A stretch of 62,246 nt of DNA, counting the filler, from Dimargaris cristalligena (lineage: Eukaryota), in assembly GCA_003614675.1 (NCBI GenBank). It is 4 parts of 4 records of this genome, joined end to end, with 100 filler letters (N's around TTAATTAATTAA, not from the genome) between each part and the next. Parts side by side here need not be neighbours in the genome. Positions count along the whole stretch, not along the records: positions 31,228 to 46,689 come from ML002887.1; 3 more parts are not named here. One strand, written 5' to 3'. Of this stretch, positions 31,228 to 62,246 are shown in pieces (position 1 is the stretch's first letter; each line of letters starts with the position of its first letter). The notes beneath the pieces were generated by a model. The model was not told the DNA's origin. It did not search any database and saw nothing but the letters and a program-made list of their open reading frames with translations. Made by a program: the position numbers and the translations under genes.

Positions 31228-31305
31228 AGATCCTGGCGGATTGCGTTTCGAGGTGACTCACAAGACCAGATGCGACGCGGCTAAATATATCTTATTGTTG
31301 TCAAT

Positions 31306-31357
31306 TAGAAAATACAAGTTGATGAAAATCCTAGAAAATACAAGTTGATGAAAATCC
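31306..31357. repeat. Perfect 26-bp tandem duplication upstream of the structural gene
   Basis: TAGAAAATACAAGTTGATGAAAATCC x2. Confidence 0.9.
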
Positions 31358-31395
31358 AAAATGTTAGAAAACACGTATAAACATGAAAGAACTTG

Positions 31396-33678: not shown

Positions 33679-33744
33679 AGGTCAAAAGCATTGATACTTT
33701 TTTTACACCAATTTTGCAATGTAAAATCAAAATACCAGACAATT

Positions 33745-34110
33745 TTCAAAATTTATCGATAAATGTTGAAATCACAAATGCTTGCAAAAGTTAGAATCGT
33801 CGCAAGAAATCTTCAAACTTTATCGATAAATAAATTCCAAAAGTATATTTTCTTCACAAAATTTGAAAGTAATGTCAAACAATAGTGAACTTTTACCGAT
33901 AAATAAATTTCGCAACAAAACTTATTGACAAAACTTAATATTCCAATTTGTTGACAATTCATTTATCGATAAATAAAAACGATCTTTTTGCAAAAATTTT
34001 GAAACAAATCCAGACAATGACCAATCTTGAAGCGACCACAAACCCTATCGATAAATAAATGTTGGAATTGCATCTATTTGTCGCCATCAAACAAACCGTA
34101 TCGATAAATA
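33745..34110. repeat. Array of regularly spaced TTTATCGATAAA(TAAA) palindromes between convergent genes
   Basis: Cores at 33755, 33822, 33895 (ACCGAT variant), 33965, 34047 and 34100. Confidence 0.85.
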
Positions 34111-35015: not shown

Positions 35016-35148
35016 CGTCTTTGAATACTAATACTAACTGACAAATTCTTATTTGACAAGACATTGCTTTATGATCAGACGCGCGTTCAATGACTGAAAG
35101 TTTAAAATTTATATAAAGAAATACATCTGTTTTTGGAGTATAGACAAC

Positions 35149-36171
35149 ATGGTTGCAGGAAGACGCTCAAAAAAGTTAGTGGATTGCGATGATGTGTATG
35201 AATCACCTATCGGTATTTCTCAACATCAATTAGAAAATGAAACGCAACCACTCAAATCCAGCGCTGGCGTAAACAATTTCGTAGAATATGTCCCGGATGA
35301 AAATTACCTGTTAGAAGTCAGAACTACGTCTGGAAATATTTTCAAAAACCTTCTAGACACTCTGAAGGCAGTATTGAATGACGCCAACATTATATTCAGT
35401 CCTGCAGGATTGAAATTGGCAGCTGTCGACTCAAAAAATAACGCATTTGTTCATTTGGTGATGGAAGCAGAAAAATTTGCATTTTTTCACTGCAAATCCG
35501 CCCAGCTGGTTCTCGGCATCGATATTAATGTGCTTCAGAAAACGATCAAAACAAACAAGGCGAACGATCTTCTGTGCTTTGTAGTAAGAAAAGATGATCC
35601 CAGTCATTTAGAAATAACATTTCACAATATTCAAAAAGGGGAAAGAATTACAGACAAAATCGCACTGTTGACTCTGAAAGAATCAATTATAAAGGATGAG
35701 ATTCGTATGAATCTTGGGTTGAAAATATCCAGCCAAAGTTTTCAAAACATTTGTCGCGAAATGGTCTCCTTTGAAGCAACCAAGATTCAGATCGAAAGCA
35801 CAGCAAATGAGTTGGTGTTCACAAACAAACTTGATGGATCCAATGCCCCGAACGGATTTACCACTCGTCGAGTTGTCATATCTATCGATAACACCGGTGA
35901 CAACGATCAGTCGAATATTGAATATCAACCTGCAAAAGGAGTTTTTGATTTAAAATTTCTCAAATCATTTGCAAAAGCCGCAAATCTAAGTCCCGATGTC
36001 ATCGTATACTTGACCAACTATTCACCCATAATTTGCGAGTACTCTATTTCGGGTTTGGGAACCCTCCGATATCTTTTATCTCGGGAAGAAGGATATGATG
36101 ACTACGATGACGAATATGATGAAGACGACGGGGAATCATGCGATCAGCATGATGATTATGAAGACAAGTAA
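35149..36171 (+). CDS. PCNA: Proliferating cell nuclear antigen (viral-type sliding clamp), 340 aa
   Basis: LEVRTTSGNIFKNLLDTLKAVLNDANIIF...AVDSKNNAFVHLVM...FQNICREM...GVFDLKFLKSFAKAANLSPDV...PIICEYSISGLGTLRYLL; intronless; acidic tail. Confidence 0.92.
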   Translation: MVAGRRSKKLVDCDDVYESPIGISQHQLENETQPLKSSAGVNNFVEYVPDENYLLEVRTTSGNIFKNLLDTLKAVLNDANIIFSPAGLKLAAVDSKNNAFVHLVMEAEKFAFFHCKSAQLVLGIDINVLQKTIKTNKANDLLCFVVRKDDPSHLEITFHNIQKGERITDKIALLTLKESIIKDEIRMNLGLKISSQSFQNICREMVSFEATKIQIESTANELVFTNKLDGSNAPNGFTTRRVVISIDNTGDNDQSNIEYQPAKGVFDLKFLKSFAKAANLSPDVIVYLTNYSPIICEYSISGLGTLRYLLSREEGYDDYDDEYDEDDGESCDQHDDYEDK

Positions 36172-36320
36172 TTCTTTTTCCTTTCATGTGTCTTTCGTCT
36201 CAATATGATAATACTGTTTAATCGAAAATAGTAAATATTATAAAAAATCGCGTAAACATTTCAAAATAAACTTAAAAATACATGTTAATACAATCTAGGA
36301 TAAAGCAAAATCTGTGAATA

Positions 36321-36734
36321 ATGGACGTGTCTTGGAAAACAATAAAAAAAGGTTACAAACGCGTTTTGCAAACTGCTTTTGCAACGGAATCAAAACGCGA
36401 AGAAGCACACACTACATTATTATTATTTTTGTGTTCCGTAAGCGATCTATATCTCAGTGGGGATGTCCAAGTAAAAAGCGCTCTGGCACATTTGGGACTT
36501 GATGACTTTCCTTTATCAGATGCACCAGAAGATAATTCGTCAAATGACGAAAACGAAACATTACAGCATACTGGATTTAACATTCAAAGTATCCATTCGA
36601 ACATGCTTCCTGCGGAAATGTTGCGACTGTTTCCGTTTTCAGCGTATCTCAATGCAAACAACAACGCACGCAATAACGCAACGGACAGCACTAACGACAA
36701 TCCAAATCTTTCGAGAAATGACTCACAATCTTAA
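36321..36734 (+). CDS. Hypothetical viral protein, 137 aa
   Basis: ATG-started ORF filling the gap in a gene-dense contig; no recognisable motif. Confidence 0.6.
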   Translation: MDVSWKTIKKGYKRVLQTAFATESKREEAHTTLLLFLCSVSDLYLSGDVQVKSALAHLGLDDFPLSDAPEDNSSNDENETLQHTGFNIQSIHSNMLPAEMLRLFPFSAYLNANNNARNNATDSTNDNPNLSRNDSQS

Positions 36735-37073
36735 TAGATCGCTTACTTGCTGAAACGGTTTTTTATCTATCATCTCTATTAATTTTCTTTCCGTTGGTTC
36801 TTTCAATGTGCTTATTTGAAAAAAATCTATCACATTGACTATTGAAAGAACCTCATCACATGACATTTCGTTCAAACTGTCCAAATCATCAAACAATTTG
36901 AACAAATTATCCAAGACAACCTTTGAAATGTTAAAGTAAAATTTTTCCTTTGAACAGCCCAGATCATTGATCATGTCGCAAAATAAATTGACACCTTTTG
37001 AAAAAATTATTTCTTTTGAAAAGAAAAACTCAAAGTCGTCCAAACTGATAACGAAAATTCCAGTTTGTGTCAT
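36723..37073 (-). CDS. Skp1/BTB-like protein, 116 aa
   Basis: FVISLDDFEF...LFCDMINDLG...NISKVVLDNL...VLSIVNVIDFFQISTL...LIEMIDKKPFQQVSDLL parallels the Skp1 POZ and dimerisation motifs. Confidence 0.6.
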   Translation of the reverse strand: MTQTGIFVISLDDFEFFFSKEIIFSKGVNLFCDMINDLGCSKEKFYFNISKVVLDNLFKLFDDLDSLNEMSCDEVLSIVNVIDFFQISTLKEPTERKLIEMIDKKPFQQVSDLLRL

Positions 37074-37313
37074 TGTTTAACGTTTTTTCGCAACTTTCCA
37101 TAAATATGAATTCGTTATTGGTAGACGCTCGATTGATGGTTCAGTATATATTGAAATATCCTTTTTACGTTATTTTCTATATTTTCGTTTCGAAACTTCA
37201 AACAACTTTGATATTTCCAGAATATTTCGGATTGAACATTGTCCAGAAATGGATTTTCACACTATTTATGATTCTCGTCATTGCCTTTATCGATAAAACG
37301 TATCTAATCGTAT

Positions 37314-38264
37314 CTAATCGTATCTATCTTTAAATTTTTCGTGTATTCCTTCTAAAAGCCGCTTCTTTGCAGTGTCATAAGGTCTGATCACTTTTAGACA
37401 TTGATCAAATGTAAACCAACCCACGTTGAAAATTTCACCACCGTCGCGAATGATTTCGATTTTATCTCGAGGCAAGACGTTTTTGCCCGAAATCTCCGCA
37501 ATGTAGTAAATGTGACGATATTGAATACCATTGGTTCCCACAAAAAGTTCCTCGCGTGGATTGTCTGTGATTATTTTGACGTCATGGTGATTATAACCAG
37601 TCTCTTCACGAAATTCTCGTTTGGCGCAGTCAATATTAGATTCGTACATGTTCTTTCTACCTTTTGGAAATCCATACTCTTGTTCTGTCCACCTACATGT
37701 GGTTTTCGAAAGAAGATCTTTGATATCAAGCTTCATAAATCTTTTTTCAGCATTTTCATATTCATTAATATACAATTTGCTGCTGTGATTACTCCATAGA
37801 CCGAACCACATGTCATAAAAAGATTCCTTTGATAAACGCATTCGTTCTTCGCATGTCATTTCTTCCAGGTAAATTTTCAAAACTTTGAACTTTTCATTGC
37901 CAGAATCTGGGTATTTGCCTCTGAGAAGATCAATGTATCCCATGGTGTCTTTACGTTGGACCATCAGGTAAAGAATTTTCGCATCTTCCGTGGGAAGAGG
38001 AATCGCATCAGGGCTTGAATTTTCATGAATCGGGCATTTCTTCCTGCTTACATTTTCCACCGGTCCCAAATTTACATAGTCACGAGCCGTAATTACCACC
38101 AAGCCAAAACTCGTTGTTGGTTCTGAACATTCTTTCCAAATATGACCCTCCTGTCCACAATTTACGCAGCAAAATCTTTTCCGTTTTCTTTCAGGAAATC
38201 CCCCACGATTTATTCGATTCTTTAAATTTCGGTGATTTTTTAGTTCGTCCATCAAAAAGTTCAA
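37314..38264 (-). CDS. Nudix hydrolase, NCLDV mRNA-decapping enzyme type, with N-terminal CCHC zinc knuckle, 316 aa
   Basis: CVNCGQEGHIWKEC, TSFG, YLMVQRKDTMGYIDLLRGKY, Nudix box GFPKGRKNMYESNIDCAKREFREETG, ELFVGTNGIQYRHIYYIA. Confidence 0.9.
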   Translation of the reverse strand: MNFLMDELKNHRNLKNRINRGGFPERKRKRFCCVNCGQEGHIWKECSEPTTSFGLVVITARDYVNLGPVENVSRKKCPIHENSSPDAIPLPTEDAKILYLMVQRKDTMGYIDLLRGKYPDSGNEKFKVLKIYLEEMTCEERMRLSKESFYDMWFGLWSNHSSKLYINEYENAEKRFMKLDIKDLLSKTTCRWTEQEYGFPKGRKNMYESNIDCAKREFREETGYNHHDVKIITDNPREELFVGTNGIQYRHIYYIAEISGKNVLPRDKIEIIRDGGEIFNVGWFTFDQCLKVIRPYDTAKKRLLEGIHEKFKDRYD

Positions 38265-38378
38265 ACCTCAAAGTAGATGAATCCATGTTATTGACAGCGC
38301 AGAAAGTTTGTTTTGATGCGTTCTTCGCATTTACACGAAATATTGTCAAATGTATATAAAGTCGATATATAAAGTCGA

Positions 38379-39356
38379 ATGACTTTTATGACAAATAAGT
38401 TATTTCTAATGTTTTCCAATTTTACCACCATCAAATCAAGAGACTCTTCCAGTTTGGAACTGACTTTGGAAAAAAACAAAAAACTTTTTGATATTCGTCA
38501 GAGGTCCAACGAAATTTGGATTCAGACCAACCGAGTCAATGTAATATATGGTTATTCTGCAAGTATTTTTAAACCAGGCCAGGGTTCTCTTGTTGTCAAG
38601 ATAGATGATGATCTTCGTAAAACTGTAGAAAAAGTCGACACACTCGTATTTGACGAGATAATTCGAATTCATGCTGGTAGTATCGTCGAAAATGTCAAAA
38701 TTACTCCAAATGCTGTCAAAGCCATGTATAGGACAAGCTTAAAACAAGACAAGTTGAAATTAAACTGTTCAAGTTTGAATTGTGCTTTTTTTTCCAAAGA
38801 TAATATTCTGTTGGAAAATGTCGTGTTGGAAACTCTTCTCCCTAAAAACTCTATAATAAGTCTTATTATTCAACCCGCTTTCGTTTGGATGATGGACGGC
38901 AAAATCGGCATCCGATGGGAAGCCCGACAAATTAGGATACACGAGCAAATAAACAACGAAGAAATCATCGATCGAACACTGCCGGACACTAAACAACAGA
39001 ATTATCAAAAAGGGTCTGATTCGCATCTAAATTCAACAAAAATTGGGAAGAACTACGAAGATTCAAACACTCAAATCAATCATCTTTTCAAACACAAGGC
39101 AAATGTCAATCCAAACAAGAGATTATTGTTTCCTGATGATGATGATTATGCAAAAAACAGTGAAGTTATCGATAAAAATACCACGAATCTTTCCCGCCGA
39201 TTATTGTTTCCGGATAATGATGATGAACCTTCGAATACAAAAAATATTGAATTTATCGATAAAGTTACCACGAATCTTTCACGCCGATTATTGTTTCCGG
39301 ATGATGATGAACCTTCGAATGCAAAAAATATTGAATTTATCGATAAAGTTTGCTGA
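38379..39356 (+). CDS. Putative viral single-stranded DNA-binding protein (OB-fold, DUF2738-like) with repetitive acidic tail, 325 aa
   Basis: IWIQT, VEKVDTLVFD and IIQPAFVWMMDGKIGIRWEARQIRI resemble NCLDV SSB motifs; acidic C-terminus. Confidence 0.6.
   Translation: MTFMTNKLFLMFSNFTTIKSRDSSSLELTLEKNKKLFDIRQRSNEIWIQTNRVNVIYGYSASIFKPGQGSLVVKIDDDLRKTVEKVDTLVFDEIIRIHAGSIVENVKITPNAVKAMYRTSLKQDKLKLNCSSLNCAFFSKDNILLENVVLETLLPKNSIISLIIQPAFVWMMDGKIGIRWEARQIRIHEQINNEEIIDRTLPDTKQQNYQKGSDSHLNSTKIGKNYEDSNTQINHLFKHKANVNPNKRLLFPDDDDYAKNSEVIDKNTTNLSRRLLFPDNDDEPSNTKNIEFIDKVTTNLSRRLLFPDDDEPSNAKNIEFIDKVC
39110..39351 (+). repeat. Three tandem ~70-87 bp coding repeats (xRLLFPDDD...IDK), each ending in the ATCGATAAA palindrome
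   Basis: Units 39181-39267 and 39268-39351 are near identical; a more diverged unit precedes them. Confidence 0.9.
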
Positions 39357-39385
39357 TGATGACGATGAAATTCAATAATTCCCGA

Positions 39386-39802
39386 TCACGATTCTCGACA
39401 ACCAAATCTTACTAACACCACTTGTTGGCCGAGTAAATTGGTTTTTTCTTGATGTTTTTTAGTGTTGCACGGTTTGTCATCGTCATGTCTACTCAAAAGG
39501 TTTATCATAAAAAATGTCCCGCGCATTCTATTCTTGTGTTTGACATAGCACAACCTCCCGTACAATCCTTGCAAGTAATCATTTAAACAACGTCCATCAA
39601 TGCCTTTCAATACCATCAATTCCAACACGAGTTTCACAAGTGACTTTACTTTCTGTTTTGCATTTGACTTTTGCCTTATTATATCGTTTTTGGCGGACGA
39701 TCGGGCATATTTCATGTTTTCTGAACATGTCCAAATATTACCAACTAAAAATATTTGTGATGGTCTTGCAAGTTCACAACAACAGTTTAGCGTGGGGATC
39801 AT
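39386..39802 (-). CDS. Hypothetical viral protein, 138 aa
   Basis: ATG-started ORF filling the space between neighbours; no motif recognised. Confidence 0.45.
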   Translation of the reverse strand: MIPTLNCCCELARPSQIFLVGNIWTCSENMKYARSSAKNDIIRQKSNAKQKVKSLVKLVLELMVLKGIDGRCLNDYLQGLYGRLCYVKHKNRMRGTFFMINLLSRHDDDKPCNTKKHQEKTNLLGQQVVLVRFGCRES

Positions 39803-39967
39803 GGGTTTTAATGTTAAATGTCAACATGTACTATGAACATGTATTATGAACATGTTAACATTTATATAAATATTTAGTGCAAAATTTATTGATGTATTTC
39901 GTATAAAACAGCAACAAAAAATATTAGATAATAGATAATCGATAATCGATAATCGATAATCGATTTT

Positions 39968-40624
39968 TCATTCGCTCAAATTTGACATAAGTTGATACTG
40001 CATATCGATCGGTTCAGTTAAAGGCAGAGTAATCTTTTGAGCTTCGTCTCGTTCTAGATCTGTGTAAAGATCAGACAGAAAAGTATCTCGCTCTTGACGC
40101 AATTCCTCTGTTCGCTTCTTAATAAGAGCTTCGAGTTGTTGTATCTTGAACCAAACTGCTGCAGCATGTTGCCGTTTGTTCTCAGATGCGCTGGCCAAGG
40201 CAGCTTTTCCTTCCTGTGTTTTCGCATACTCCAGATCTTTGGCATGTTTTTCTTTGATTTCTCGGAATTCCTTATCCCAGTTTTTGTCCATCTCTGCTTG
40301 CTTGTTTCGGTGAGATTGAATCAATCCAGTCAATTGACTGTTTGCATATTCGACATTCGACACTTCAAATGGGTTGAACACCCATGGAGACCACTTTCCA
40401 ACTGTACCTACAAAAATGTCAAAATCCGGGTCTAACGCTTGATAAGCCATGGATAGTTTTCTTCCTTCCTCTTCAGTTTCGCAAACGTCATGGATTTTGA
40501 AACCATAGGTATCGTGTTTTTGTCTGCTTTCCGGGCTAATCATACTTGCCAAAAAGTATTTTTTCCCTGGAAGAGGCGGATTGTCATGAAGTATAGCCAC
40601 CTTTGTGCTTTTGATGTCTGACAT
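39968..40624 (-). CDS. Conserved NCLDV protein, DUF5832-like (start taken at MSDIK; upstream in-frame codon at 40675)
   Basis: DNPPLPGKKYFLASMISPE...GFKIHDVCETEEEG...LDPDFDIFVGTVGKWSPW...VEYANSQLTGLI. Confidence 0.75.
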   Translation of the reverse strand: MSDIKSTKVAILHDNPPLPGKKYFLASMISPESRQKHDTYGFKIHDVCETEEEGRKLSMAYQALDPDFDIFVGTVGKWSPWVFNPFEVSNVEYANSQLTGLIQSHRNKQAEMDKNWDKEFREIKEKHAKDLEYAKTQEGKAALASASENKRQHAAAVWFKIQQLEALIKKRTEELRQERDTFLSDLYTDLERDEAQKITLPLTEPIDMQYQLMSNLSE

Positions 40625-40742
40625 TTGACTATTTTTACTTTGGTATTTCAAAAAACAATTAGAAAAAAAACGCACCGCATGAAAACGTCAACATTCGTCT
40701 CACGGATGCAAATTTTTAAATTTCCAATGATAAACGACAATA

Positions 40743-42101
40743 ATGAGTGGATTAAATGGGATCAAAGTGGAAACGGGTCAAGACAAAGTGGTCAACACCA
40801 TCCCCGCCTTGCGTGTTAACATGAACAACGTGGAATTGGCCTCTAATCAAACAGCACCAAAATCACGAATTGAGATCCCCGAAAGAAATAAACCAACAGA
40901 AAATACCGATTCTGATTCTGGGGAAGATTTCAAATTTTTAGAAAATGGGAAAAAATCAAAGATTGTACCACTTGCCGAAAAAGACAACAACTTGGACAGC
41001 GAATCAGAGAGGAGCAATCGTTCAGCAAGATCTAAAAACTCACAATCTTTTCCAAATGCTCAAGATAATTATACGCCTCGTTACAATTCCCGAGCATCTG
41101 ATGATGGAAAAAATGGAGAGCACCGATCATTCTCGTCTCCAACACCAAATAATGATGATTTAAAGGAAATTTCATTTGATTCTTCTCGTTCATTTCAAAG
41201 AAAAATAACTGCCACGTTGACACCAAACGAACTAAGGAAGCAAAAGACTAATTACCTTTACCAATACGAAAAACACAACAAAGATTTCAAGTATTTCAAT
41301 AGAAAATACACCATTCATGATGATGTTGATGAAATTCGGGACGCTGTGGAAAATGTCAAACGGAAGAAACAAACAGAAGAAGTAATAGAATTTTGGAAGA
41401 AAATGATGATGTTACTAGTTGCGTGCATTACAATGTTGAACTCTACCTTTAATCCCATGGACATCGATTTAGAAACATGGAAAACAAATATGAATTACGA
41501 TTTGAACATTGGTAAATATGACGATCCATTCGAAGCACTAGTCGACAAATACAGCGGCAATTCCGCTTACGGACCCGAATTAAGAATTCTCGGTTTGATG
41601 GGGATGAACCTTGTTATTACAGTCATGGCTCAAAGAGAAAACAAAAATAAACTAGCTGATATTGCTTTGGAAAAAGAGAAAATGAAGAGAGAAATGCGAG
41701 AAGAAATTTACAGAGAAAACGCCGCACTATACGCTGCGAACCGAGCGAAACAAGAACCACTTAACGATCGACCTGTTTACATTCCTGCGTCCGCACCCAG
41801 AACTCAGGTGCCAATCCCATCACAACAAATGAAGGGTCCATCTGACTTTGATGAAATGCAGCAACAGCTGGCAGACGTCAATTCGGATTGCAATAGTTCC
41901 GAATTCCCCGGTGACCAGGAAAGTATGATGAGTTTACGTTCTGAACATGCCCCGAAAATCGAAATACGCGATACTGTTGACGAGATGACCCTAGAAAAAA
42001 CAATTCTGACCATTGAACCGAAAAAAATCAAAGAACCCAAACGAAGAGGTCGCCCTCCAAAGAGCGTTTTTCAAAACGATGTAAAAGTAATTAGCGTCTA
42101 A
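40743..42101 (+). CDS. Conserved NCLDV protein, DUF5767-like, 452 aa
   Basis: KQKTNYLYQY...IEFWKKMMM...LNSTFNPMDIDLETW...YDDPFEALVDKY...GPELRILGLMG...QMKGPSD. Confidence 0.75.
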   Translation: MSGLNGIKVETGQDKVVNTIPALRVNMNNVELASNQTAPKSRIEIPERNKPTENTDSDSGEDFKFLENGKKSKIVPLAEKDNNLDSESERSNRSARSKNSQSFPNAQDNYTPRYNSRASDDGKNGEHRSFSSPTPNNDDLKEISFDSSRSFQRKITATLTPNELRKQKTNYLYQYEKHNKDFKYFNRKYTIHDDVDEIRDAVENVKRKKQTEEVIEFWKKMMMLLVACITMLNSTFNPMDIDLETWKTNMNYDLNIGKYDDPFEALVDKYSGNSAYGPELRILGLMGMNLVITVMAQRENKNKLADIALEKEKMKREMREEIYRENAALYAANRAKQEPLNDRPVYIPASAPRTQVPIPSQQMKGPSDFDEMQQQLADVNSDCNSSEFPGDQESMMSLRSEHAPKIEIRDTVDEMTLEKTILTIEPKKIKEPKRRGRPPKSVFQNDVKVISV

Positions 42102-42126
42102 CAAACATTTATCGATAAAATGTTTC

Positions 42127-42426
42127 TCATTTCGGATGCGAGACTGTCGACTGGGTAACGGCAATATGCGTTGGGGGTTTGTGGCACCCCGGATACAATG
42201 ACATAAAATATTGTAAAATCAGGAAAAACAAAGTCATTGCCACAGCGTGTTGGAAATTTTCTGTCGATTGGTACATTATGCAAAATAACGTAAATGTCTT
42301 GATAATTGAAGTGTCCAACAAACTCCCACACAATAGCTGAATGTCATTGCCAACATATCTCGTTGCGAAGTATGACATGTAAGAAATTAGGCATTTAAAA
42401 GATTTGTGTGCAATCGTGGAATCCAT
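42127..42426 (-). CDS. Small viral membrane protein, 99 aa
   Basis: FATRYV...IIKTFTLFCIMYQSTENFQHAVAMTLFFLILQY resembles a small multi-TM family seen in giant-virus core clusters. Confidence 0.55.
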   Translation of the reverse strand: MDSTIAHKSFKCLISYMSYFATRYVGNDIQLLCGSLLDTSIIKTFTLFCIMYQSTENFQHAVAMTLFFLILQYFMSLYPGCHKPPTHIAVTQSTVSHPK

Positions 42427-42574
42427 TGTTCAACTGTTTTAGTCGTGTTTATCATATCCATCCGTAAAAAAACAACCTCGTTTCTGTTTAATGGCTGTTT
42501 TTACATGGCACCCGTCCATTCGTCGAATAGGTTTGTAAAATTTAGAATCTATATAATAGAAGCAGACATAATTG

Positions 42575-42829
42575 ATGAATGAAGCGAAAGATCTCGGAAC
42601 AGATGAAAACGACCACATTACTGCTCTTAAGACGTGTAAAGATGTAATTCAACATGTCCATGTTTGCAACAATTGTCAAAGACGACTATCGTTTGATCCA
42701 ATTGAGAAGGCTCTTTTAAAAACTCATTCAGTCAAAAACGAAATCATCGAACTCGTTGCATTTTTGGCAATGGGTTCATTTATTATATTTTTTCTTCATT
42801 TTATGGTTAAGTTCAAAAGTGTAAACTAA
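42575..42829 (+). CDS. Small viral protein with C-x5-H-x3-C-x2-C motif and C-terminal TM helix
   Basis: CKDVIQHVHVCNNC followed by IIELVAFLAMGSFIIFFLHFMV. Confidence 0.65.
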   Translation: MNEAKDLGTDENDHITALKTCKDVIQHVHVCNNCQRRLSFDPIEKALLKTHSVKNEIIELVAFLAMGSFIIFFLHFMVKFKSVN

Positions 42830-42859
42830 CGATACATTACAAGAACAGAGTGATTTTGT

Positions 42860-43366
42860 TTACGAACATTTGTGAATATTTTTCAAATGTGCATATCTGG
42901 GATTTTTGCGCATAATTTGGCTCCTCAGGTTAACATTGCTCAATCCAGAATCTGGGTTATAATAGTACTCATCTATTTTCGAACTTTTTTCTTTCATTTT
43001 TGGTTGAGCAAATTCGATCCCAAGTTCTTCCTTTAGTTTGCGTTGTTTTTCGTTCCATTTTTTTGTTTTGGAAACGTCCGCAGCACTCCAAGAGATGTAG
43101 AGTGTATTCTCATCATTTTTTCGCTTTACATAAAACTCTTTCTTTCGCAAGGCTGCTTTGAGATACTCCATGCATTCTGTAAAATTATAGTTTGTCGTGT
43201 CTGGAATGCTTATTGGAACTTTAATAGTTGTGCATGTTTCGTGACAAATTTCATAAACCATACGTATTTCAGCCAAGGCTTTTTCCAATTGAATTTGATA
43301 TTTTTTATATCTGGACTCTGATTTTGCATGTTCCTCTTGAATAAGATCAGATGCTTTCAGAGTCAT
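42860..43366 (-). CDS. Conserved NCLDV protein, DUF5759-like, 168 aa
   Basis: YQIQLEKALAEIR...CTTIKVPISIPDTTNYNFTECMEYLKAALRKKEFYV...LYISW. Confidence 0.75.
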   Translation of the reverse strand: MTLKASDLIQEEHAKSESRYKKYQIQLEKALAEIRMVYEICHETCTTIKVPISIPDTTNYNFTECMEYLKAALRKKEFYVKRKNDENTLYISWSAADVSKTKKWNEKQRKLKEELGIEFAQPKMKEKSSKIDEYYYNPDSGLSNVNLRSQIMRKNPRYAHLKNIHKCS

Positions 43367-43529
43367 TTATTATTAAACATTGATTTTTTATTGTTTTACA
43401 ATAACACGTTTCTCAATAGCGGGAAACACTGAAATTTGTAGATAATCAATTTCTCAAAATGAGCTAAAGCGTTTCTCATAAAAACCACAGTCTCCATAAA
43501 CCTAGCTTTCGTCCGTCAGTCAGTCAGTC

Positions 43530-43999
43530 ATGTCGTCGGCAAGGTGCAACCAACCGTCGCAAAAAGCTCGCTCCCGCTACCGTCAGCTCCCTGCCGTCAC
43601 GTCCTCGACAGCGCCTCAACAACCTGCTCAACTTCAACCCGCCCTCAATCCAAACTGGCCACTTAACATGCGCCCATACTTGGTCGGAGGCGGGCCCCAC
43701 GCTCACAAGGTAGACTGGCGCCGGGAGTTCCTGAAAAACCACCCGGAACTCGTCTCCCCTGAAGACCAGGAGGCGGCTTTCGCTGCATTCTGGAAGGGGT
43801 TGATTAAGCTCTACGAAACTGGTAAATGGGGTCGAGGAAACTTACGTCCGAGGCGGGGGAAGGGACCACCTGCCAACAAAACACTAATGTCCTGTTCGTT
43901 CGCCCCGTTTCAGATTGGTCCTGGCTGTCTTCTTTGTTCTCTTGGCTAACCTGCGGTTTTGTCCATCCCGGCGGTTCCAAGGATAAACAAGCTTGGTAA
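43530..43999 (+). CDS. Hypothetical GC-rich gene with probable spliceosomal intron; join(43530..43821,43914..43999), 125 aa
   Basis: GTAAAT donor at 43822, CTAAT branch, pyrimidine tract, CAG acceptor at 43913; the spliced frame ends TDWSWLSSLFSWLTCGFVHPGGSKDKQAW*. The unspliced alternative is 43530..43949. Confidence 0.45.
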
Positions 44000-44212
44000 G
44001 TAACGCGGGGGAGGGCGGGATGGACGACTCCATTTCTTCCCCAGATCTTTTAAATCCCGCGCTTTTCATGCTTCTCATGCTTTTTAGCTTACCATGGTAA
44101 CGTCTACATGCCTTACCGCGGTAACCGTCGCTTCCCTTAGATCTTTCTTTTTAGATTCGGAAAAAATCAATATTCGTGAATTAGTTCGAATAAATTCAAC
44201 AGTTAAACACCC

Positions 44213-44322
44213 TCGAATATTTTTCTTTCATTTTTGGTTGAGCAAATTCGATCCCAAGTTCTTCCTTTAATTTGTGTTGTTTTTCGTTCCATTTTTTTGT
44301 TTTGGAAAGGTCCGCAGCACTC
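44213..44322. repeat. Direct duplicate of an internal piece of the DUF5759-like gene (42979-43088)
   Basis: TTTTTCTTTCATTTTTGGTTGAGCAAATTCGATCCCAAGTTCTTCCTTTA...TCCGCAGCACTC is present twice with only a few substitutions. Confidence 0.92.
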
Positions 44323-45110
44323 ATAATCACAATCTCATTTATCGATAAATCATATTGCAAATTCATTCAACATTCTGCAATCACAACCATAATCACAATC
44401 TCATTTATCGATAAATCATATTGAATAATTTCTTTCTCAAATTCATTCAACATTCAAAAATCACAATCGCAATCATAATCACAATCTCATTTATCGATAA
44501 ATCATATTGCATAAGTTGTCAAATTCATTCAACTTTCTCAATCACAAACATAATCATAATCACAATTTGTTTTATCGATAAATCATATTGCATAAGTTGT
44601 CAAATTCATTCAACTTTCTACATTCACAATCATAATCACAATGACAATCATAATCACAATCTCATTTATCGATAAATCATATTGCATAATTTGTCAAATT
44701 CATTCAACCTTCTACATTCACAATCATAATCACAAAGACAATCATTATCATAATCACAATCTCATTTATCGATAAATCATAATGCATAATTCGTCAAATT
44801 CATTCAACATTCAACAATCACAATCATAATCCTAATCCTTGCAAATCCCAAATTCTTCCAACAATCATAACTACATCCACAAACGTATGGCAAATTCGTT
44901 TAACATTCACAATCACAATTTGAATCTCATTTATCGATAAAACATATTGCATAATTTGTCAAATACTTTCAACATTTTACGATTACAATCGCAATACCCG
45001 GTAGTAATTTATAGAAAGTCTTTGACAAATTTTGCCTTTGCATTACAAATTACATATTCTACTTTCACAATCGCAATCACAATCACAAATTAACAATCAT
45101 TTTGCGAACA
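44323..45110. repeat. Tandem array of 7 palindrome-containing units separated by variable CA(C/T)AAT runs
   Basis: Core CACAATCTCATTTATCGATAAATCATATTGCATAA-TTGTCAAATTCATTCAAC; ATCGAT at 44341, 44407, 44493, 44574, 44668, 44768, 44933. Confidence 0.93.
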
Positions 45111-45149
45111 TTCAATTTCTTCGTAATTCAACTTTCCGAACCTGGTTTG

Positions 45150-46133
45150 TTAAATTGACTTTCGTCTGGTAACATATCTGCTATTTGACAAACACTTATT
45201 CAAAACAACCTGTCTGTTTGATTTGTGGTGTATCCTGGCACTTTCATATCCTTTCATAAACAAACTTTTTTTTGTAATAAAATCAATATCGAGGTCAAAA
45301 CAATGACTTTCAGAGCATGTCAATGAAATTGTTAGAGATAAGCGATCATCTAAAATTCCTTTTTGAATTGAATCGATGAGACCTTCACTTTTTTTGATGG
45401 AACAAGAAAACAAATTGTATAGAAAGTTTTCGAAAGAACTTGTTTTTCGATTTGAAAGTGATCTAATGTCACATCCAATAACATAATCGCAAGGGTCCAG
45501 TTGTGGGTTTCTTAGCTTGAAATCTTTTATGCAATGCAGTATCGGATAATTATCCATTACACCACCATCAACGTAATGCTTTCTGTTATGTTGGACTGCG
45601 GAAAACAGAAAAGGGACAGATATTGATATTCGGATCGCATCAAGAACTCTCATATCGCCAAATTTTTCCGGACAAAAATAATCAATCTTGTGTGCGGAAA
45701 TGTCACATCCAGTGAAAATGAGCCTTTTTTTAAATTTTGACTCAAAATCTTTGAATGTTATCATGGGATTAACACCGTTTTCAACCATGATATCCACCAA
45801 ATGCGCAATGAAATATTCTCCTGAATCTATCCCAAAGGTCTCGAAAAACTTTGAAATATTGCTATATTTTAAAATACTTTTATCAAAAACGGACAATTTC
45901 TTGAAAATGTCATCACAAGACATACCGGTTGCAACACACATTGCAACCACTGTACCGATTGATGTCGCAACAAACGTATCAACGTTATTCATCATTTCTT
46001 TTTCCTCCAGATATTTCAGAGCTCCCAAATGCGCGAAACCCGTCGTTCCCCCACCTGACAAACACACACTTTTGTATGACATTTTCTTCATGATATAAAA
46101 TTTCAGAATCGCAATAATGTTTGAACGCACCAT
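45150..46133 (-). CDS. Patatin-like phospholipase (NCLDV type); true start may be at MKKMSYK
   Basis: LSGGGTTGFAHLGAL, ATSIG nucleophile elbow, FGIDSG, AIRISISVPFLF, YVDGGVMDNYP. Confidence 0.92.
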   Translation of the reverse strand: MVRSNIIAILKFYIMKKMSYKSVCLSGGGTTGFAHLGALKYLEEKEMMNNVDTFVATSIGTVVAMCVATGMSCDDIFKKLSVFDKSILKYSNISKFFETFGIDSGEYFIAHLVDIMVENGVNPMITFKDFESKFKKRLIFTGCDISAHKIDYFCPEKFGDMRVLDAIRISISVPFLFSAVQHNRKHYVDGGVMDNYPILHCIKDFKLRNPQLDPCDYVIGCDIRSLSNRKTSSFENFLYNLFSCSIKKSEGLIDSIQKGILDDRLSLTISLTCSESHCFDLDIDFITKKSLFMKGYESARIHHKSNRQVVLNKCLSNSRYVTRRKSI

Positions 46134-46140
46134 CCATATT

Positions 46141-46494
46141 TCATATTTTGTCTTTTGATTGGAAACAAATCTCTGGACATATCATGGAATCAAATGCCAA
46201 AATGTTCAAGTCAAAAGTATCGTCCATTACCATCGAGATTTCCAAAGACTCCTTCGGGTATAGATTACCATCCTTCACACTATAATATAAAATAACAGGC
46301 AAAATCTCGTACAGGTACAGAGGGTGACTTGTTTCTTTATCAATGTCCATCAAAGTGAGATTGTTGATAAGAATGCCAGATGGGTAAGTGACATGGAATA
46401 ACGAATTAGGTTTGCCACATAGTCGTGTTTCCAATACTTGTCTGTCACCATTGGTTCTCAAAGTCCAATAAACAAACTTTCCGTCTCCAGACAT
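46141..46494 (-). CDS. Hypothetical viral protein, 117 aa
   Basis: ATG-started ORF tightly packed upstream of the patatin gene. Confidence 0.6.
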   Translation of the reverse strand: MSGDGKFVYWTLRTNGDRQVLETRLCGKPNSLFHVTYPSGILINNLTLMDIDKETSHPLYLYEILPVILYYSVKDGNLYPKESLEISMVMDDTFDLNILAFDSMICPEICFQSKDKI

Positions 46495-46689
46495 TTTCGA
46501 TAATATTATATATGATACGTGTTCTGAATCAGCATGTTTATCGATAGAGACACTGTATTGAGCTGGCCGATTGTCCGTCGATATCTCGAACCATGGAACA
46601 GGTGATTGAAGCCATTGAAGATATGAGAGCGGTGACCAACGGTTTTGTAATCGAATTGACGAAATCGAATCTGATGGAGGAAAAATGAC

Positions 46690-46789
46690 NNNNNNNNNNN
46701 NNNNNNNNNNNNNNNNNNNNNNNNNNNNNNNNNTTAATTAATTAANNNNNNNNNNNNNNNNNNNNNNNNNNNNNNNNNNNNNNNNNNNN
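46690..46789. other. Artificial contig spacer
   Basis: 44 N + TTAATTAATTAA + 44 N. Confidence 0.98.
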
Positions 46790-46907
46790 CATACTCGTCA
46801 GGGGCAGGGGCAGGGGCTCATTCACTCGTCAGGGGCATACTTCCGATAAGTACGAAAAATAGATAAAAAATAAAAGTAGGTAAAAAATGTGGTAAGTTCA
46901 CCACACC

Positions 46908-47920
46908 ATAGTCACCCCCAGTCCTACAGGATCACCCTATATCATATAACTATTCCCCTTTTGGACTCCTTATTTTACACTAATCACTCTAGTGCTAATC
47001 TAAAGACTCTTCTGGCTACTATCAGAGTCTTCCATATCCTCACACCCATCTAATTAGTTATTTTATCCATCAGTAGTCTTAGCAGTATCCTTCTCTAGGG
47101 ACCTCCCTCTGGAGTCATCCCTGTATATATATAACTGGGCCCCACTGAGACCAGTTTAATTTTACAGCTTATTCCTTACCCCCTAGTTTATCCCAATAAA
47201 CCATATGGGAGTAGTTCAACCAGGCTATATAACGAAAAATCCATTTGGGAGAGGTTCAACTGGGCTGTATAATGAAAAATCCATTGGATGAAGCAAATAT
47301 GACTGGTTAAAAATAAATCTCCCATATATTATCCCATACAATTATCATTTAAAACCTTATACAGCTGGACCGAACTTCACCCATATATATACTCACCCCC
47401 CTTATATTAACTAGTAAGTGTGCCTGCTGTATGTCCCTTACTTATACCTACATCTAGTAGCCTTTATTAGTTAATCCCATGCCTCCAACCTAATACTAAG
47501 ACCCACTTGGCTGAGCCTAAGCTCCATCTGCCATTAGAAGCCTATCCTTGGGACCCTTAACAAACTAAGAGTAGTTAACCTGGGTAACAGATGTTTGTGT
47601 CTAAGATGGCTAAGTAACCTATGACATTCTTGGACCTCAAGCCTACCACAATGCCCTCTATAAAATTTATATTAGTTTCCTAAATCAATTGGTACCCCAG
47701 GCCAACCCCCCTTTTCCCACTACTAGACCTGAGCTTTCTTTGAATGGCCTACTGGTCCATTTAGCCAACCCCCACCACCTTCCCTGAGTGAATGTCACCA
47801 TTATAGAATCTTATTTGACTTAACCTATAGACACACAATCCTAACCCATAAATATCACAAATCTAATTGCCATTAGCCAGCTCAGGCATTAGATATTCCA
47901 TAACAACCCCCTACTAATAT
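46908..47920. mobile_element. Second copy of the decayed CpG-poor repeat, interrupted by a MITE
   Basis: 46908-47183 and 47401-47580 align to 29464-29743 and 29744-29915 in the same orientation; CpG-poor composition continues to about 47920. Confidence 0.75.
47203..47386. mobile_element. MITE copy A (with internal ~40-bp duplication)
   Basis: Ends ATATGGGAGTAGTTCAACCAG ... CTGGACCGAACTTCACCCATAT are imperfect inverted repeats; homologous to the reverse complement of 52387-52530. Confidence 0.8.
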
Positions 47921-48422
47921 TATAAAGACGGAACGTTGGCATTTTAGCTTGGCATGTAGTCATTGTTTAATATTAAGGATATTTGTCACTTTTACAATTG
48001 TATCCATACAGCCAAGTCTTATCTGCAACTGTAATTACGGTGAAACGGAATTGAGTGCAACGAGATACTAGCTACGCGATCCAATTATACATGCTCTCGT
48101 GGATTGCTGATTTCTTTTAAATAAACCAGATATCATAGTTGAGGCGTAAATTTAGTTCGTATTGCTATAAAGTAATTACCAACCTCGGAGTAGGCTGATT
48201 GCTACATCTATACATGTTACTACAATTGCCCATTGTCAGAATTTACGTGAACATCAATTTGGATTATATATTCGGATCACTCCCTACAGCTTCAGTATAC
48301 AGGGAAATCTAGAAATGCAGCACCCAAAAATTAATGAGTAATAAAATAAAATCGGAATATGGGCATACCATGGCCCATGTGTATTGGTCCGTCCGCCCCT
48401 TTTCTGTACACAAGGTATCCGC

Positions 48423-50334
48423 TTACGACTGTTTCTTAGTTTCAAAAGCCGGAATGCCCGTAATAGCTCTGCCCAGGATCAAAGCGTGCACATCATGGGT
48501 CCCTTCGTACGTGTTCACCGCCTCCAAATTCATCACGTGGCGAATAATGTGGTACTCATCACTGATGCCGTTGCCGCCTAACATATCCCGGCACTGGCGA
48601 GCGATGTCTAGGGCTTTCCCGCACGAATTACGTTTGATCAGGGAGATCATTTCCGGGGCCACTTGACCTTCGTCCTTGAGACGTCCCACGCGCAGGCAAC
48701 TCTGGAGGCCTAGGGCAATTTCGGTATGCGCGTCCGCCATTTTCTTCTGGATGAGCTGGAAGCTGGCCAAAGGAACCCCAAATTGGCGGCGCTCGAGCGT
48801 GTAAGCACGCGCTTGATCCAAACAGAATTCGGCGGCACCCAGGGCCCCCCACCCGATACCGAAACGGGCGTTGTTGAGGCAACCGAAGGGGCCCTTGAGG
48901 CCGCTGACCGCGGGGAGAAGTTGGTCGGCGGGGATTTCGACTTCGTCCATCATGATCATACCGGTGATGGAGGCCCGCAGCGAAAACTTACCCTTGATGG
49001 CCGGGGCCTCAAGACCTTTGGTACCCTAGGTAAGTGTAGAGTTAGAGAGGCAATTGTAAATAAGGCACGCTAGTGAATATTATATATAGTGATAGTCCAC
49101 ACTGGCGGTTAAGAGCGGGGAGGGAATAACCCAAATAGATTATGGGACGCCCATATTTGCAATCTATGCAGAAGTAGTAGGCAATATCATCAATACATAT
49201 AACTGAAAGGGGCTTTACCTTCTCGATAATGAAGCCACGAATTTTGCCGTCCTCGCTCAAATTCTTAGCCCAGACCACGAACACATCGGCAATGGGCGAA
49301 TTCGTGATCCAAGTTTTCGAGCCATTCAACACATACGTACCCCGGTCAGTTTTGCGGGCGGTCGTTTCCATCCCGGCCGGATCACTCCCGTGGTTCGGTT
49401 CAGTCAAACCGAAACAACCAATCAGTTTACCTTTGGCGAGTTCAGGGAGGTACTTCTTCTTCTGAGCTTCGGTACCGTAGGCGTGGATGGGGTGCATAAC
49501 CAACGAGGATTGGACACTCATGGCCGAACGGTAGCCACTGTCGACGCGCTCTACTTCGCGCGCGGTGAGGCCGTAGGCCACGGAAGAGACTCCAGCACAG
49601 CCATAGCCTTGGATGGTGGAGCCCAATAGGCCGAGCTCACCCATCTCTTCCATGATGGTACGGTCGAAGTTTTCGTGGCGATTGGCCTCGAGCACCCGGG
49701 GGAAGAGCTGCTCCTGGCAGTACTCTTTGGCAATGCTGTGGATGGTGACTTCGTCTTCGGTCAGCTGGGCATGGAGGTTGAGCGGATCGGTCCAGTCGTA
49801 TTTGACGAAACCTGGCCATGGTGGGGTGGCGGGTGGTCAGTGGAGGGAAATGTGGGTGTGTATGTATGTGTGGTTGTAAGTAAATAAAACAAAACTAGAT
49901 GGGTTGGATATATCATCTACTGTTGATAAAGCGAGGGTCTGAGTAGGCGCCGTGGGCATTTTCAGCGAATAGCGGGGTTTTAACAGTAAGCTACATTTGG
50001 GTGGGGGTTGTTTCAAAGGTACTTACTGGACTGGGTGGCCATAGTGCGGCGGGTAGCCTGGGACACCGCCAGAGTCGACCGGGCTATAGAGGGTACCCGT
50101 CAAACAAGGATTGCTTTGGAAAATTCCAGGGGTTAGTAGGCTACGAGGGATAGGTGGCATGGTTTGCAATAATACTGTCGCATTAGCCAACCCCGGCAGA
50201 TGCCGGAGGGCTAAAGTACTGCCAAAAGAACCGCCTCGGTAGTGAAATAAAAGCAGCTCCGGGGAGGGAGGCTGAGATTAGCCAAAGGAACACCTCCTAC
50301 CTGACAAAACCGGGCGTGATAAGCGGCTCAACAT
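48423..50334 (-). CDS. GCDH: Glutaryl-CoA dehydrogenase, mitochondrial; complement(join(48423..49025,49219..49811,50027..50083,50301..50334)), 428 aa
   Basis: [78 protein letters not shown]; Arg/Ser-rich presequence [15 protein letters not shown]; all introns GT-AG and phase-compatible. Confidence 0.96.
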
Positions 50335-50884
50335 GAGGGCATTCATACTGGTGGGGGAGTAGAGTTTCAATAGAGGAGAGTAGACTGTACTTGTAATAGA
50401 AAAGCCTGGCAAGGCGGGAAGAACAATAACAAGAACAAGAAGGGTATTGGATGAGAAAGTATTGAGTAGGAACTGTATTAACAGAGGAAGAAAGCCGGGT
50501 ACGCCGAACTTCGGGCGAGGCAGTCAATATAGCCACCAGACTAGAGTGACTGCTCAAGGAATAGTGTGACTAGGGGCCACTAGATGCACCACCCCCCATT
50601 ATGAATATAGGCCACATGACCCAGCTATTCACACTGCCCAGGGAATTTGAAATACAACCATAATAATCCCGCTATTCTGGCGGAGTTGCCCAGGTTCCAA
50701 CCAGTGGGATTGGCAGACCTCGCTGAACGTGGCCCACTGTCCTATACTCATTCTACTTCGCCCTTCCCTCCCATTCCTTGGTCAATGTCGTTTTATTTTG
50801 TCAACACCCTATTGTAGAGGAGTCCCTGGGACAGAATCGGTTAGCATAGTCCTATCCAGCAATATCGTATAGCCCAGAGCTAAC

Positions 50885-53800
50885 ATGTCACCCACATCCG
50901 CCGTCCCGTCCGAAGGTGGCAGCAGTAGCAATAGTAATAGTAATAGCAGTAGCAGTAGCAGTAGCCTTCGCCGCTTTTCCGTCACCGCTGGCCCACCCCA
51001 TGCCACCACCCATGCCGATCGGCTGGCACTATTTCCTGGCTTCACCCCCGCCCTAGATGCTGCCCAGCAAAGGGCCATTGCCGCTATCCAGCGTGATCTC
51101 GATTGGCAGCGCCGGCAACAGCCTAAACGACCAACGAGTCGGAACGATACCGCCTCTCCCTCTACCCCGGGCCGTCCATTGGTCCCGAATTCTCCCCAGA
51201 CGCCCATGCGAATGCGGACCCGGGGCCGGGCCTTTTCTGAGCCTTTTTCCGTCTACGAACCCCTCAGTCTAGACCCCGCGCTAGCCGAATTTTACCATAC
51301 CGCACTGGAACTAGGCCCCGTGGACTGGGCCTCGGGCCCCTCTACCCATTACACCCAGGAAGTGGTGCTCGTAAGGGAAGTGTGCCAGCTGTTGCTTGGT
51401 CGCCCGTCCCTGCTATTTCGTTCCCGATCCAAGAAACCCGCGCCGTCATCGGCCATTACATCCTCACCACCCAATTCGCCTTCGCCATCGACTCCACAAT
51501 CAATAGCGGCATCAGCATCGGCGACCGACCAGTGTAGTCTGTCCGGTTCCACTTCTCCTCCGGGCTCGGCTAAACATACCTTCCGCCCGGCCCGCTTACG
51601 GTCCCAGTGGAAACTAGCCCATCTCACCGTTCCCGCCCTCGACCATATTCTCCAGGATTTCAACCAGTTAAGTGAAACGCTGCGGGAACTACGGGAGTGG
51701 GTAAACCGGGTTCTGATCCCCTCCGAAGCCCGCCCTTTTACACCCAATCGTGCACCCCTATCCATATCCCTACCCCTACCCCCACCGCCTCCCCAGACCC
51801 AGGTGGGCCAGGCCTTTGCGTTTAAACTCAAGGAGTATCTAGTGACTTTTGACAAGGCGATCCGGAAAGTCGAGCTGGATTACTTTACGACCCGTCGGAA
51901 CAGCCCGTCGTCCAGCAGTCCTACTTCACTCACGGACACCGCGGCGGGTAACAGTGCCCCACTAGGTTCCCTCCTTCGTTTACGCTGCGAGCTAAATGAC
52001 CAATGGCACCAGATCCAGTTTCTATGGGACCTGCTAGTCGTCCGTCTGGATGGTGGTCGCACTCATTCATCCGCCCAAACCCAAACCCACACTCCTGCTA
52101 CCACCACCACCGTCACTGCGGCCGCCTTTACCTCTCGAATTTTGGACGTTTTGTACCAGACCATTGAAATCCACCAACTCGAGAAACCCGGGCCTAGTTA
52201 CCGTTTAGCCGTCGAGCTATTCACGGCTGCGGTAGTGCCCTACCTTGATCTCATTTCGGAATGGGTGAATCGCGGCGCTGCTGACGATATTTGGGGCGAA
52301 TTTGCCATTCAAATGTAAGTTGCCACAGTCATACCAGTTAACAAACACTCCCTGTTGCTAAGCATCACCTGCCCCTAGATTGGGCAATATGGGTGAAATT
52401 CAGCCCAGCAATATAAGGGATTACATTATATGTCTATGGGAGAATATATGGGAATTTTATTTTTAACTAGTAATATTGGCCGAATCTAATGGATTTTTCG
52501 TTATACAGCTTAGATGAACTTCTCCCATATCAACTAATAGATGTTCATGCATCACCCCTTTTCTTTACTGCCTTATACCACTGTAGGACCAGTCAATCCG
52601 AACCAGCCTTGTGTGGATTTTGCCCTCGCTTCCTAAGCCCCCATATCCAAACTATCCTCAATCACGGTAATGAAGTCCGACTCAATCAGCGCATCCTATC
52701 CGTAGCCCAGCGTACCACCCCTGTCCAGTGGTACGATCTTGCATCGGTGGTACTTCCCCATCTAGTAGCGGCTCTTGGACCGCCGGACAAGCGGGTCACC
52801 TTCGCATCCCTCCCCCCTCCCCTTCCCCATACTCGACCTCCTCTTGATCCGACCCGGCGATTTGTTAGTAATATTCCCGAGCCGGCTAGCCTCGAGATTT
52901 TGGATATCGATCCTGATACGGCCGACGATCTCGCCGTACTCTTCCAGAAGCACCGCGTAGAACCTGCACGGGGCCCTGCCTCTTGGGCACCCCATTCTGC
53001 GTATTCCCAACCCACCGCCACCGCCGCCGCTACTTTACGAGTCCAGCCCCCTGCCACGCTAGGTCGGTCGGCGGTTTTCCAACCCATTGGGTACCGGCTA
53101 GACCAATCCCTAAATGCGTTCCTCAAAACCCTTCGCCAGGCCGTGGGACCCACTATTCTGGCCAATTTCCACCGACATACCCGTTGGCGGGACACCTTCC
53201 GGCACTTCAACGAATTATTTTACTTACTCGACGGTACGCTGCTCGCCTATTTTCACCGGCAGTTTTTTGACCTACCGTACCAACGTACCACCACTACTAC
53301 TACTATCACTGCACTGACCTCATCCAAAGATGGGTCAGATGCGGCCCCACAACGGAAGGCCCTCCAGCGGGACAATTTACTGCTTAGTGAACTCAACAGT
53401 ATTCTGGGTGAGTCCTTACACCAACACCCCGTTTGGCGACGGTACGCCAGCCACGTCCATATCACCGGCACCCAGACACTGGCTTTAGCTAAATGCTCGC
53501 AAGTTAGACCCCATATGGTATTCGAGGTGATTAACCAACTCACGATGGAATTTGAGGTAAGTCGGTAAGGCGAATCCGGTATTCCTGTCGAACGGCCCTA
53601 TGTAATCATGATCAAACTCTATCCGATTACTTAGGACTGGCTTACAGCAATGATACGGTCTCTCTAAGCGGGCCAGCCTTATTAGGGGATTCCTTATTTA
53701 CTGAATACGCACGCGGGCTTGATTTAACATTAATCGGTATTATCCTATGTTTTGTCGTCGGTCTACCTACCTTATGTTTTTACTTTCGGTCGTTTTTGTT

Positions 53801-56025: not shown

Positions 56026-56061
<36 letters not shown>

Positions 56062-62237: not shown

Positions 62238-62246
62238 CCTGGTCGT

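Follow-up and report, generated by a model that had tools for sequence, protein, structure and literature searches.

A GC-rich island with a candidate spliceosomal intron in a giant-virus contig of the Dimargaris cristalligena assembly

A viral contig in the genome assembly of Dimargaris cristalligena (GCA_003614675.1) contains a short GC-rich island whose composition and codon usage are foreign to the viral backbone and cell-like. The island is real, not an assembly chimera, and it varies between close strains of the virus. It carries an orphan ORF whose sole homologues, judging from protein searches, are found in the assembly of Blyttiomyces helicus, and the ORF is interrupted by a candidate spliceosomal intron. 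On our preferred account, for and against which we find the evidence about evenly balanced, the island is recently captured cell-like DNA that came to rest in a Nucleocytoviricota genome, at a non-coding hotspot rich in repeats.

The viral contig and its GC-rich block

The window, i.e. the whole stretch of 62,246 nt analysed here, consists of four pieces (1-15518, 15619-31127, 31228-46689 and 46790-62246), and the side-by-side order of these four contigs of ~15.5 kb carries no meaning. The original prediction placed the island in a 'viral contig', a description that is apt for piece 3 but not for the window as a whole, which is four contigs joined by 100-nt spacers. Pieces 1, 2 and 4 have a GC content of ~50% and contain interrupted cellular genes, among them genes for a protein kinase, a MatE transporter (piece 2), an acyl-CoA dehydrogenase and a gamma-tubulin complex protein. 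The MatE protein shares a 90%-identity cluster with a protein assigned to Dimargaris cristalligena. Piece 3 has a GC content of ~36% and tightly packed, uninterrupted ORFs. Its protein families include DUF5767 (2e-17) and DUF5832 (1e-11) as well as weak matches to DUF5759 and DUF5901, and further products are a PCNA, a NUDIX protein, a PLOD-type glycosyltransferase and a patatin. Atlas clusters bearing DUF5767 are 100% viral with Nucleocytoviricota as the commonest phylum, and piece 3, with its dense, intron-poor ORFs and virus-restricted families, is a fragment of a Nucleocytoviricota genome. The window contains no capsid or polymerase gene. Viral ORFs are absent from the AT-rich ends of pieces 2 and 4, and therefore no virus–host junction is visible in the window. 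The features of the locus and its surroundings are listed below; X1, X3, X4 and X7 denote sequencing runs, and P0001 is a protein of the B. helicus assembly.

15519-15618, 31128-31227 and 46690-46789, no strand: spacers of 100 nt each, made up of 44 N, TTAATTAATTAA and 44 N
42860-43366, minus strand: DUF5759-like viral gene, its start codon at a distance of 77 nt from the block's left joint
42979-43088 and 44213-44322, no strand: direct repeat of 110 nt, 95% identical
43444-44052, plus strand: 609-bp block, present in the window, X1, X3 and X4 and absent from one X7 contig
43444-43447 (left) and 44053-44056 (right), no strand: 4-nt direct repeat AATC, which fits both indel joints
44087-44196, no strand: high-copy viral repeat of 110 nt, recognised by depth, diverged copies and self reverse matches, and holding the second 'exon' of P0001
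44358-44831, no strand: tandem array with periods of 81 and 94, its core the palindrome TTTATCGATAAA, with related copies from 44312 to ~45000

An island of elevated GC had been predicted at 43500-44140, and the elevation itself is borne out: windows of 200 nt across 43500-43999 have a GC content of 0.505-0.605, with flanks of 0.29-0.35, and the background of piece 3 without the island has a mean of 0.360 (sd 0.047) and a maximum of 0.49. The predicted limits had to be redrawn. Comparison of strains gives 43444-44052 as the unit instead, and 44087-44196, in the right part of the island as first drawn, belongs to the virus itself as one of its high-copy repeats. The 609-bp block has an overall GC content of 0.54 (0.54-0.59 is cited for it, vs 0.36 for the viral piece), and its first ~56 nt are AT-rich and similar to the adjoining viral sequence. 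The third codon positions of exon 1 have a GC content (GC3) of 0.65, compared with 0.355 in viral genes and 0.612 in the cellular genes of the window, and the host-versus-viral codon log-ratio amounts to +0.27 per codon. The non-coding parts of the island are GC-rich too, and its composition is therefore not due to amino-acid content. The palindrome TTTATCGATAAA has no copy inside the island and none within 90 nt after the island ORF, no viral promoter motif shared by the region upstream of the island ORF was seen by eye among 14 upstream regions, and Rfam and tRNA scans of the region gave no match.

A gene fragment, the high-copy repeat and the tandem array adjoin the island, which places it in a repeat-rich, rearranged and non-coding stretch of ~1.7 kb. 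The summed depth of the bin 44048-44145 exceeds that of the flank ~20-fold in X1 and 3.7-fold in X3, and the repeat at 44087-44196 has many diverged copies that continue differently on either side (loose ends). It contains two 12-nt palindromes, TTACCATGGTAA and TTACCGCGGTAA, at 44089-44100 and 44113-44124. Further to the right, 44213-44322 repeats an inner part of the DUF5759 gene, copied to this side of the island; a fragment ORF of 56 aa on the minus strand (44196-44366) fuses this DUF5759 piece to repeat sequence. The window contains 14 copies of the palindrome TTTATCGATAAA, where 0.02 are expected, and all of them are in piece 3 (33752-44941). Outside the tandem array most of them lie within ~90 nt after stop codons, and six of the ten viral genes checked have a copy within 90 nt after the stop; judging from these positions the palindrome looks like a viral 3'-end or termination signal.

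The island was followed through the sequencing runs. The region 42800-44400 is contained wholly or partly in seven of 11 listed runs, six of which contain at least half of the sampled words; not one of the 11 is recorded as RNA. The seven runs come from four studies, and four of them (X1, X3, X4 and X7) were compared over 41500-44420. In X1, X3 and X4, which represent three studies and three organism labels, single records of 1131-1210 nt extend from 42986 to 44116 or 44196 and cross both compositional borders and both indel joints, with 0-2 letters differing. The depths of island and viral flank are 2094 vs 1535 in X1, 12.3 vs 12.3 in X3 and 13.7 vs 13.1 in X4. Alleles at 43543, 42757 and 43373/4 distinguish the three runs, which amounts to at least three haplotypes, and the joints therefore do not go back to one chimeric molecule. 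Read continuity over both borders, which had been proposed as a check, is thus secured by contigs from three runs that bridge both of them and by an island depth close to that of the flank.

The fourth run tells of a different form. X7, from a fourth study and with a fourth organism label, matches 43136-43286 without any difference, shares the 43373/43374 variants with X4, and contains one 151-nt contig (depth 3) in which 609 nt are left out and 43443 is followed directly by 44053. The block is absent from a close viral relative at the same site, an observation on the thin basis of this one contig in one run. A 28-nt flank pattern did not retrieve the island-less form in a longer context from viral and metagenome contigs.

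The island gene and its candidate intron

The coding features of the island are as follows.

43530-43949, plus strand: unspliced reading frame, an ATG ORF of 139 aa, residues 101-139 predicted to be disordered
43530-43821, plus strand: exon 1, 97 codons plus 1 base, the sole part with homologues and a coding signal
43822-43913, plus strand: candidate spliceosomal intron of 92 nt with a GTAAAT donor, CTAAT at 43884-43888, a pyrimidine tract and CAG, GC content 0.554
43914-43999, plus strand: candidate exon 2, 28 residues including the split codon, four of them Trp, plus the TAA stop
43996-44044, plus strand: second, weak GT..AG segment, found by eye; its GTAAGT overlaps the stop, CAG follows 49 nt on, and there is no CTRAY

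The original prediction described an ATG ORF with an embedded GTAAAT...CTAAT...CAG segment of 92 nt and a Trp-rich spliced product, and both were recovered at these positions. Removal of the segment joins 43821 to 43914 and would yield a product of 125 aa that ends at the TAA at 43997-43999 and has seven Trp residues, four of them within the last 28 residues. The CTAAT lies 26 nt before the 3' AG and is followed by a pyrimidine-rich run, and the donor agrees in five of six positions with the GTAAGT of two cellular introns recovered in the window. One of these (20890-21072, 183 nt, GTAAGT...CTGAC) joins adjacent kinase ORFs, the other (52315-52508, 194 nt, GTAAGT...CTAAT) joins adjacent GCP ORFs; placed at ORF ends, both look genuine and provide a local reference for splice signals. 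On its motifs, the candidate intron fits what is expected of a U2-type donor, acceptor, branch point and pyrimidine tract.

An intron finder was set to require segments of 40-300 nt that start with a GTRWRT donor in an open frame, carry CTRAY at 8-45 nt from their end as well as a pyrimidine tract, and finish with YAG. On the real sequence it returned exactly one candidate, 43822-43913, while dinucleotide shuffles gave any candidate in 16 of 2000 cases and a candidate with a tail of at least 20 aa in 8 of 2000. The 11 viral ORFs gave three candidates, none with a tail of at least 20 aa, and 10 cellular ORFs gave ten, two of them with such a tail. The shuffles overstate the rarity of the signal, because the criteria were set after the candidate had been seen. 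As far as its signals can tell, the 92-nt segment is built like the cellular introns of the window and unlike anything else in the viral piece.

For the coding signal, a codon model was trained on the window's cellular ORFs. In this model the frame of exon 1 outscores the other five (-0.002 per codon, vs -0.20 to -0.39), which is below true cellular windows (mean 0.085, sd 0.053); among these control windows the true frame was the best in 40 of 41. The same model gives no coding signal for the read-through frame or for exon 2 in its spliced frame, and searches for a homologue of candidate exon 2 likewise found none.

Searched by word index, 5.8 billion proteins yielded two matches among 22 candidates, and phmmer with exon 1 against 1.84 billion representatives gave the same two and P0004, which was rejected as spurious, being a translated tandem repeat. 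The genuine matches, P0001 and P0002, both come from Blyttiomyces helicus and are annotated as hypothetical proteins. P0001, of 114 aa, is the same locus in the B. helicus assembly, on a contig of 22,186 bp that carries BDK51DRAFT_28904 and 28905 and where it adjoins a DUF5767 gene; its residue 5 corresponds to the 43543 allele found in X1 and X4, and its final 17 residues (98-114) correspond to 44087-44137, inside the viral repeat. The gene model of P0001 uses the donor put forward in the original prediction and a different acceptor (44086, in the viral repeat), and its second 'exon' is probably mis-modelled. The model is no evidence for splicing, because the available part of the project paper (PMC6784888) makes no mention of RNA-seq or transcriptomes. 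P0002 (BDK51DRAFT_46839, 133 aa, on a contig of 15,146 bp) is identical to the island protein at 66 of 96 residues (69%), over positions 1-96 only. The similarity ends at residue 96, beside the proposed donor at 97, the C-terminus of P0002 has no match in the window, and on the strength of this alignment P0002 is a true paralogue. The homologues fit neither the 125-aa nor the 139-aa form, the similarity breaking off at residue 96.

Further searches with the island protein yielded little. In IMG/VR the exon-1 protein has a 20-residue low-complexity match (L001), which was put down to chance, and a search of the same resource found no relative of the neighbouring DUF5759 protein. For exon 1, JGI metagenome contigs yielded nothing in a protein-profile search (118 pattern matches went without confirmation), the ESM Atlas contained no usable match, Pfam (E up to 10) and NCBIfam (E up to 1) no family, and the best hit of a PDB profile search, with an E-value of 0.69, is meaningless. 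The AlphaFold2 model of the 139-aa frame has a mean pLDDT of 54.6, and its only confident part is a two-helix hairpin; the predicted structure comprises a disordered N-terminus and helices at 56-70 and 77-97, with block-mean pLDDT values of 72-84 over residues 51-100. We lean towards the view that the 92-nt segment was a real intron in the source gene, and consider it much less probable that it is spliced in the virus.

Recurrence of the viral contig and the question of the host

Piece 3 recurs in the Blyttiomyces helicus assembly at an identity of at least 99.6%, the DUF5767 protein of that copy differing in two of 452 residues and the island ORF in one of 97. The viral contig appears in the assemblies of a chytrid and of a zoopagomycete, and also in runs that bear three organism labels. 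The carry-over of a single DNA preparation is argued against by the alleles, which differ between runs. Among the papers searched, none names both Blyttiomyces helicus and Nucleocytoviricota. According to the available part of a 2026 paper, Dimargaris cristalligena is the only non-zoosporic fungus with a match to a giant-virus capsid protein (PMC13533422); the recurrence of the contig suggests that this attribution should be checked, and the text-format part of the supplements of that paper mentions neither fungus. As a practical caution, host claims made from either the D. cristalligena or the B. helicus assembly need checking, the viral contig being nearly unchanged in both.

The island had also been proposed as a means to identify the real host. 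Its sole relatives are indeed in the B. helicus assembly, which is a hint, but one of the two, P0001, is the same viral locus. If the island is a fresh capture from a cell, it would mark, at the molecular level, the true host of a virus now present in the assemblies of two unrelated fungi. The recovery of viral contigs within fungal assemblies resembles the situation in the Mycodnaviridae, the giant viruses of zoosporic fungi (described in the available text of PMC13533422); the window contains no capsid or polymerase gene by which to place the present contig in that family, and the contig recurs nearly unchanged in a second assembly. The B. helicus assembly also includes a diverged DUF5767-DUF5759 pair (P0010, 66%; P0012, 80%) on a contig of 30,099 bp that carries BDK51DRAFT_26860 and 26861, and this pair belongs to a second virus of related type or to a paralogous segment of the genome.

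Origin of the island

Capture of cell-like DNA would have proceeded as follows. The source would be a cellular, fungus-like genome. Its DNA was most likely taken up in genomic form and not by way of a cDNA made from spliced mRNA, probably through illegitimate recombination guided by microhomology, namely the AATC at both joints. The captured cargo would have included a 5' leader, the first coding exon (97 codons), the intron-like segment and a short Trp-rich tail, and the target would have been a rearrangement-prone non-coding stretch, 77 nt upstream of the DUF5759-like gene. The event would be recent, since the composition has not yet drifted towards that of the virus and close strains still differ. 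The cellular donor, the gain event and the function of the intron in the donor are what we infer, and we take the island for a near-neutral passenger of the virus.

The original prediction, that a eukaryotic gene was captured at the DNA level, fares well on the side of the island itself: its composition is foreign, the viral palindrome is missing from it, contigs of three runs bridge it and one contig of a fourth lacks it, and the signals of its candidate intron are well formed. It fares less well on the side of the homologues, which fit neither form of the product, and P0001 has its acceptor elsewhere (44086). Against capture also counts that no near-identical donor copy was found, P0002 being only 69% identical, and that this divergence is about that of the neighbouring viral paralogues (66% and 80%); P0002 may itself be viral. 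The indel is not coextensive with the foreign DNA, because its left ~56 nt are AT-rich and virus-like, and the X7 form may be a deletion rather than the ancestral empty site.

Capture of a compositionally foreign gene into a viral backbone, varying between close strains, is akin to host-to-virus capture in the Nucleocytoviricota, and fungal giant-virus assemblies are described in the available part of PMC13533422 as mosaics of viral, bacterial and eukaryotic genes. What differs is that the island gene is an orphan, the databases offering just two relatives, and that genuine coding sequence may be confined to its first exon. Spliceosomal introns are likewise not foreign to giant viruses. In pandoraviruses they have been validated by RNA-seq in 7.5-13% of genes, and chloroviruses have them too (PMC5995976, available part). 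A short GT-AG intron, here a candidate, inside a viral ORFan gene resembles these viruses, which have a nuclear phase; unlike the pandoraviruses, we are dealing with a single candidate, proposed from the sequence, in a foreign-looking block of an AT-rich virus whose 11 other ORFs in the window have no comparable candidate. Introners and other transposons, cell-derived and intron-related, occur in integrated dsDNA viral elements of giant-virus and polinton-like type, as set out in the available text of PMC11957031. Introners, however, are multi-copy and generate an intron where they insert, whereas the 92-nt segment has one copy, inside a larger single-copy block.

As it stands, the island is one more case of two known phenomena, the mosaic genomes of giant viruses and intron-bearing viral ORFans. 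A bolder version of capture holds that a giant virus linked to early-diverging fungi very recently took an intron-bearing gene as genomic DNA from its true, chytrid-like host, and that this gene is transcribed and spliced during infection; we consider it decidedly improbable. It would, if true, name the host and show that the transcripts of an AT-rich, mimivirus-like lineage pass through the host nucleus, as a spliced transcript would reveal a nuclear step in the viral cycle.

Capture by a virus has to be weighed against the possibility that the viral piece is itself resident in a cell. Piece 3 could be a provirus or endogenous viral element in a chytrid-like chromosome, and the island host DNA that invaded after integration, in which case the host would splice the intron ordinarily and nothing special would be implied for the virus. 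This we regard as unlikely, although it has precedent: giant viruses of zoosporic fungi are reported to be integrated or persistent, with contigs at host-like coverage (PMC13533422, available part), and in Euglena eroding endogenous giant-virus elements are reported to have been invaded by transposons and duplications (PMC12455990, in the part available). The gene fragment and the tandem array would pass for signs of decay at the locus. Yet piece 3 is viral-like throughout, without a cellular flank, its viral ORFs are intact, and no viral ORFs are present at the AT-rich ends in pieces 2 and 4. Recurrence in runs of three organism labels would moreover be odd for a chromosomal insert.

Another reading is somewhat less likely again. 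The island could be an old resident gene of the virus lineage, or a selfish inter-virus element with a composition of its own, and X7 would then have lost it in a microhomology-mediated deletion, for which a 4-nt microhomology is as well suited as for an insertion. P0002 (69%) is diverged to much the same degree as the paralogues of DUF5767 and DUF5759 (66% and 80%), and the virus-like AT-rich sequence in the left end of the indel agrees with this reading. Nevertheless a GC3 of 0.65 and GC-rich non-coding parts are unexpected in a genome with a GC3 of 0.355, the island ORF is not followed by the viral 3' signal, and the paralogous DUF5767-DUF5759 pair is on a 30,099-bp contig from which P0002 is missing. 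Moreover, exon 1 retrieved no more than the 20-residue low-complexity match from the viral contigs of IMG/VR, and nothing from the JGI metagenome contigs.

The presence of AATC at both joints, and presence or absence between near-identical backgrounds, would also suit a small non-autonomous transposon that duplicated a 4-bp target site, a reading close to the 'small mobile insert' that the original prediction named as its alternative. It is very unlikely: the block 43444-44052 has neither terminal inverted repeats nor LTR-like ends, and no transposase, Pfam family or Rfam match. Nor are there extra copies, 43460-44047 being at single-contig depth in X1, X3 and X4 with no further copy at an identity of at least 85%, and the other 46 kb of the window containing none.

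Finally, an assembly or amplification chimera of cellular and viral DNA might be suspected from the sharp break in composition and from the amplified single-cell DNA used by the source project (PMC6784888, available part), but it has next to no probability, with the same joints in three runs of three studies under different alleles, island depth close to that of the flank, and the same gene neighbourhood annotated in a second assembly.
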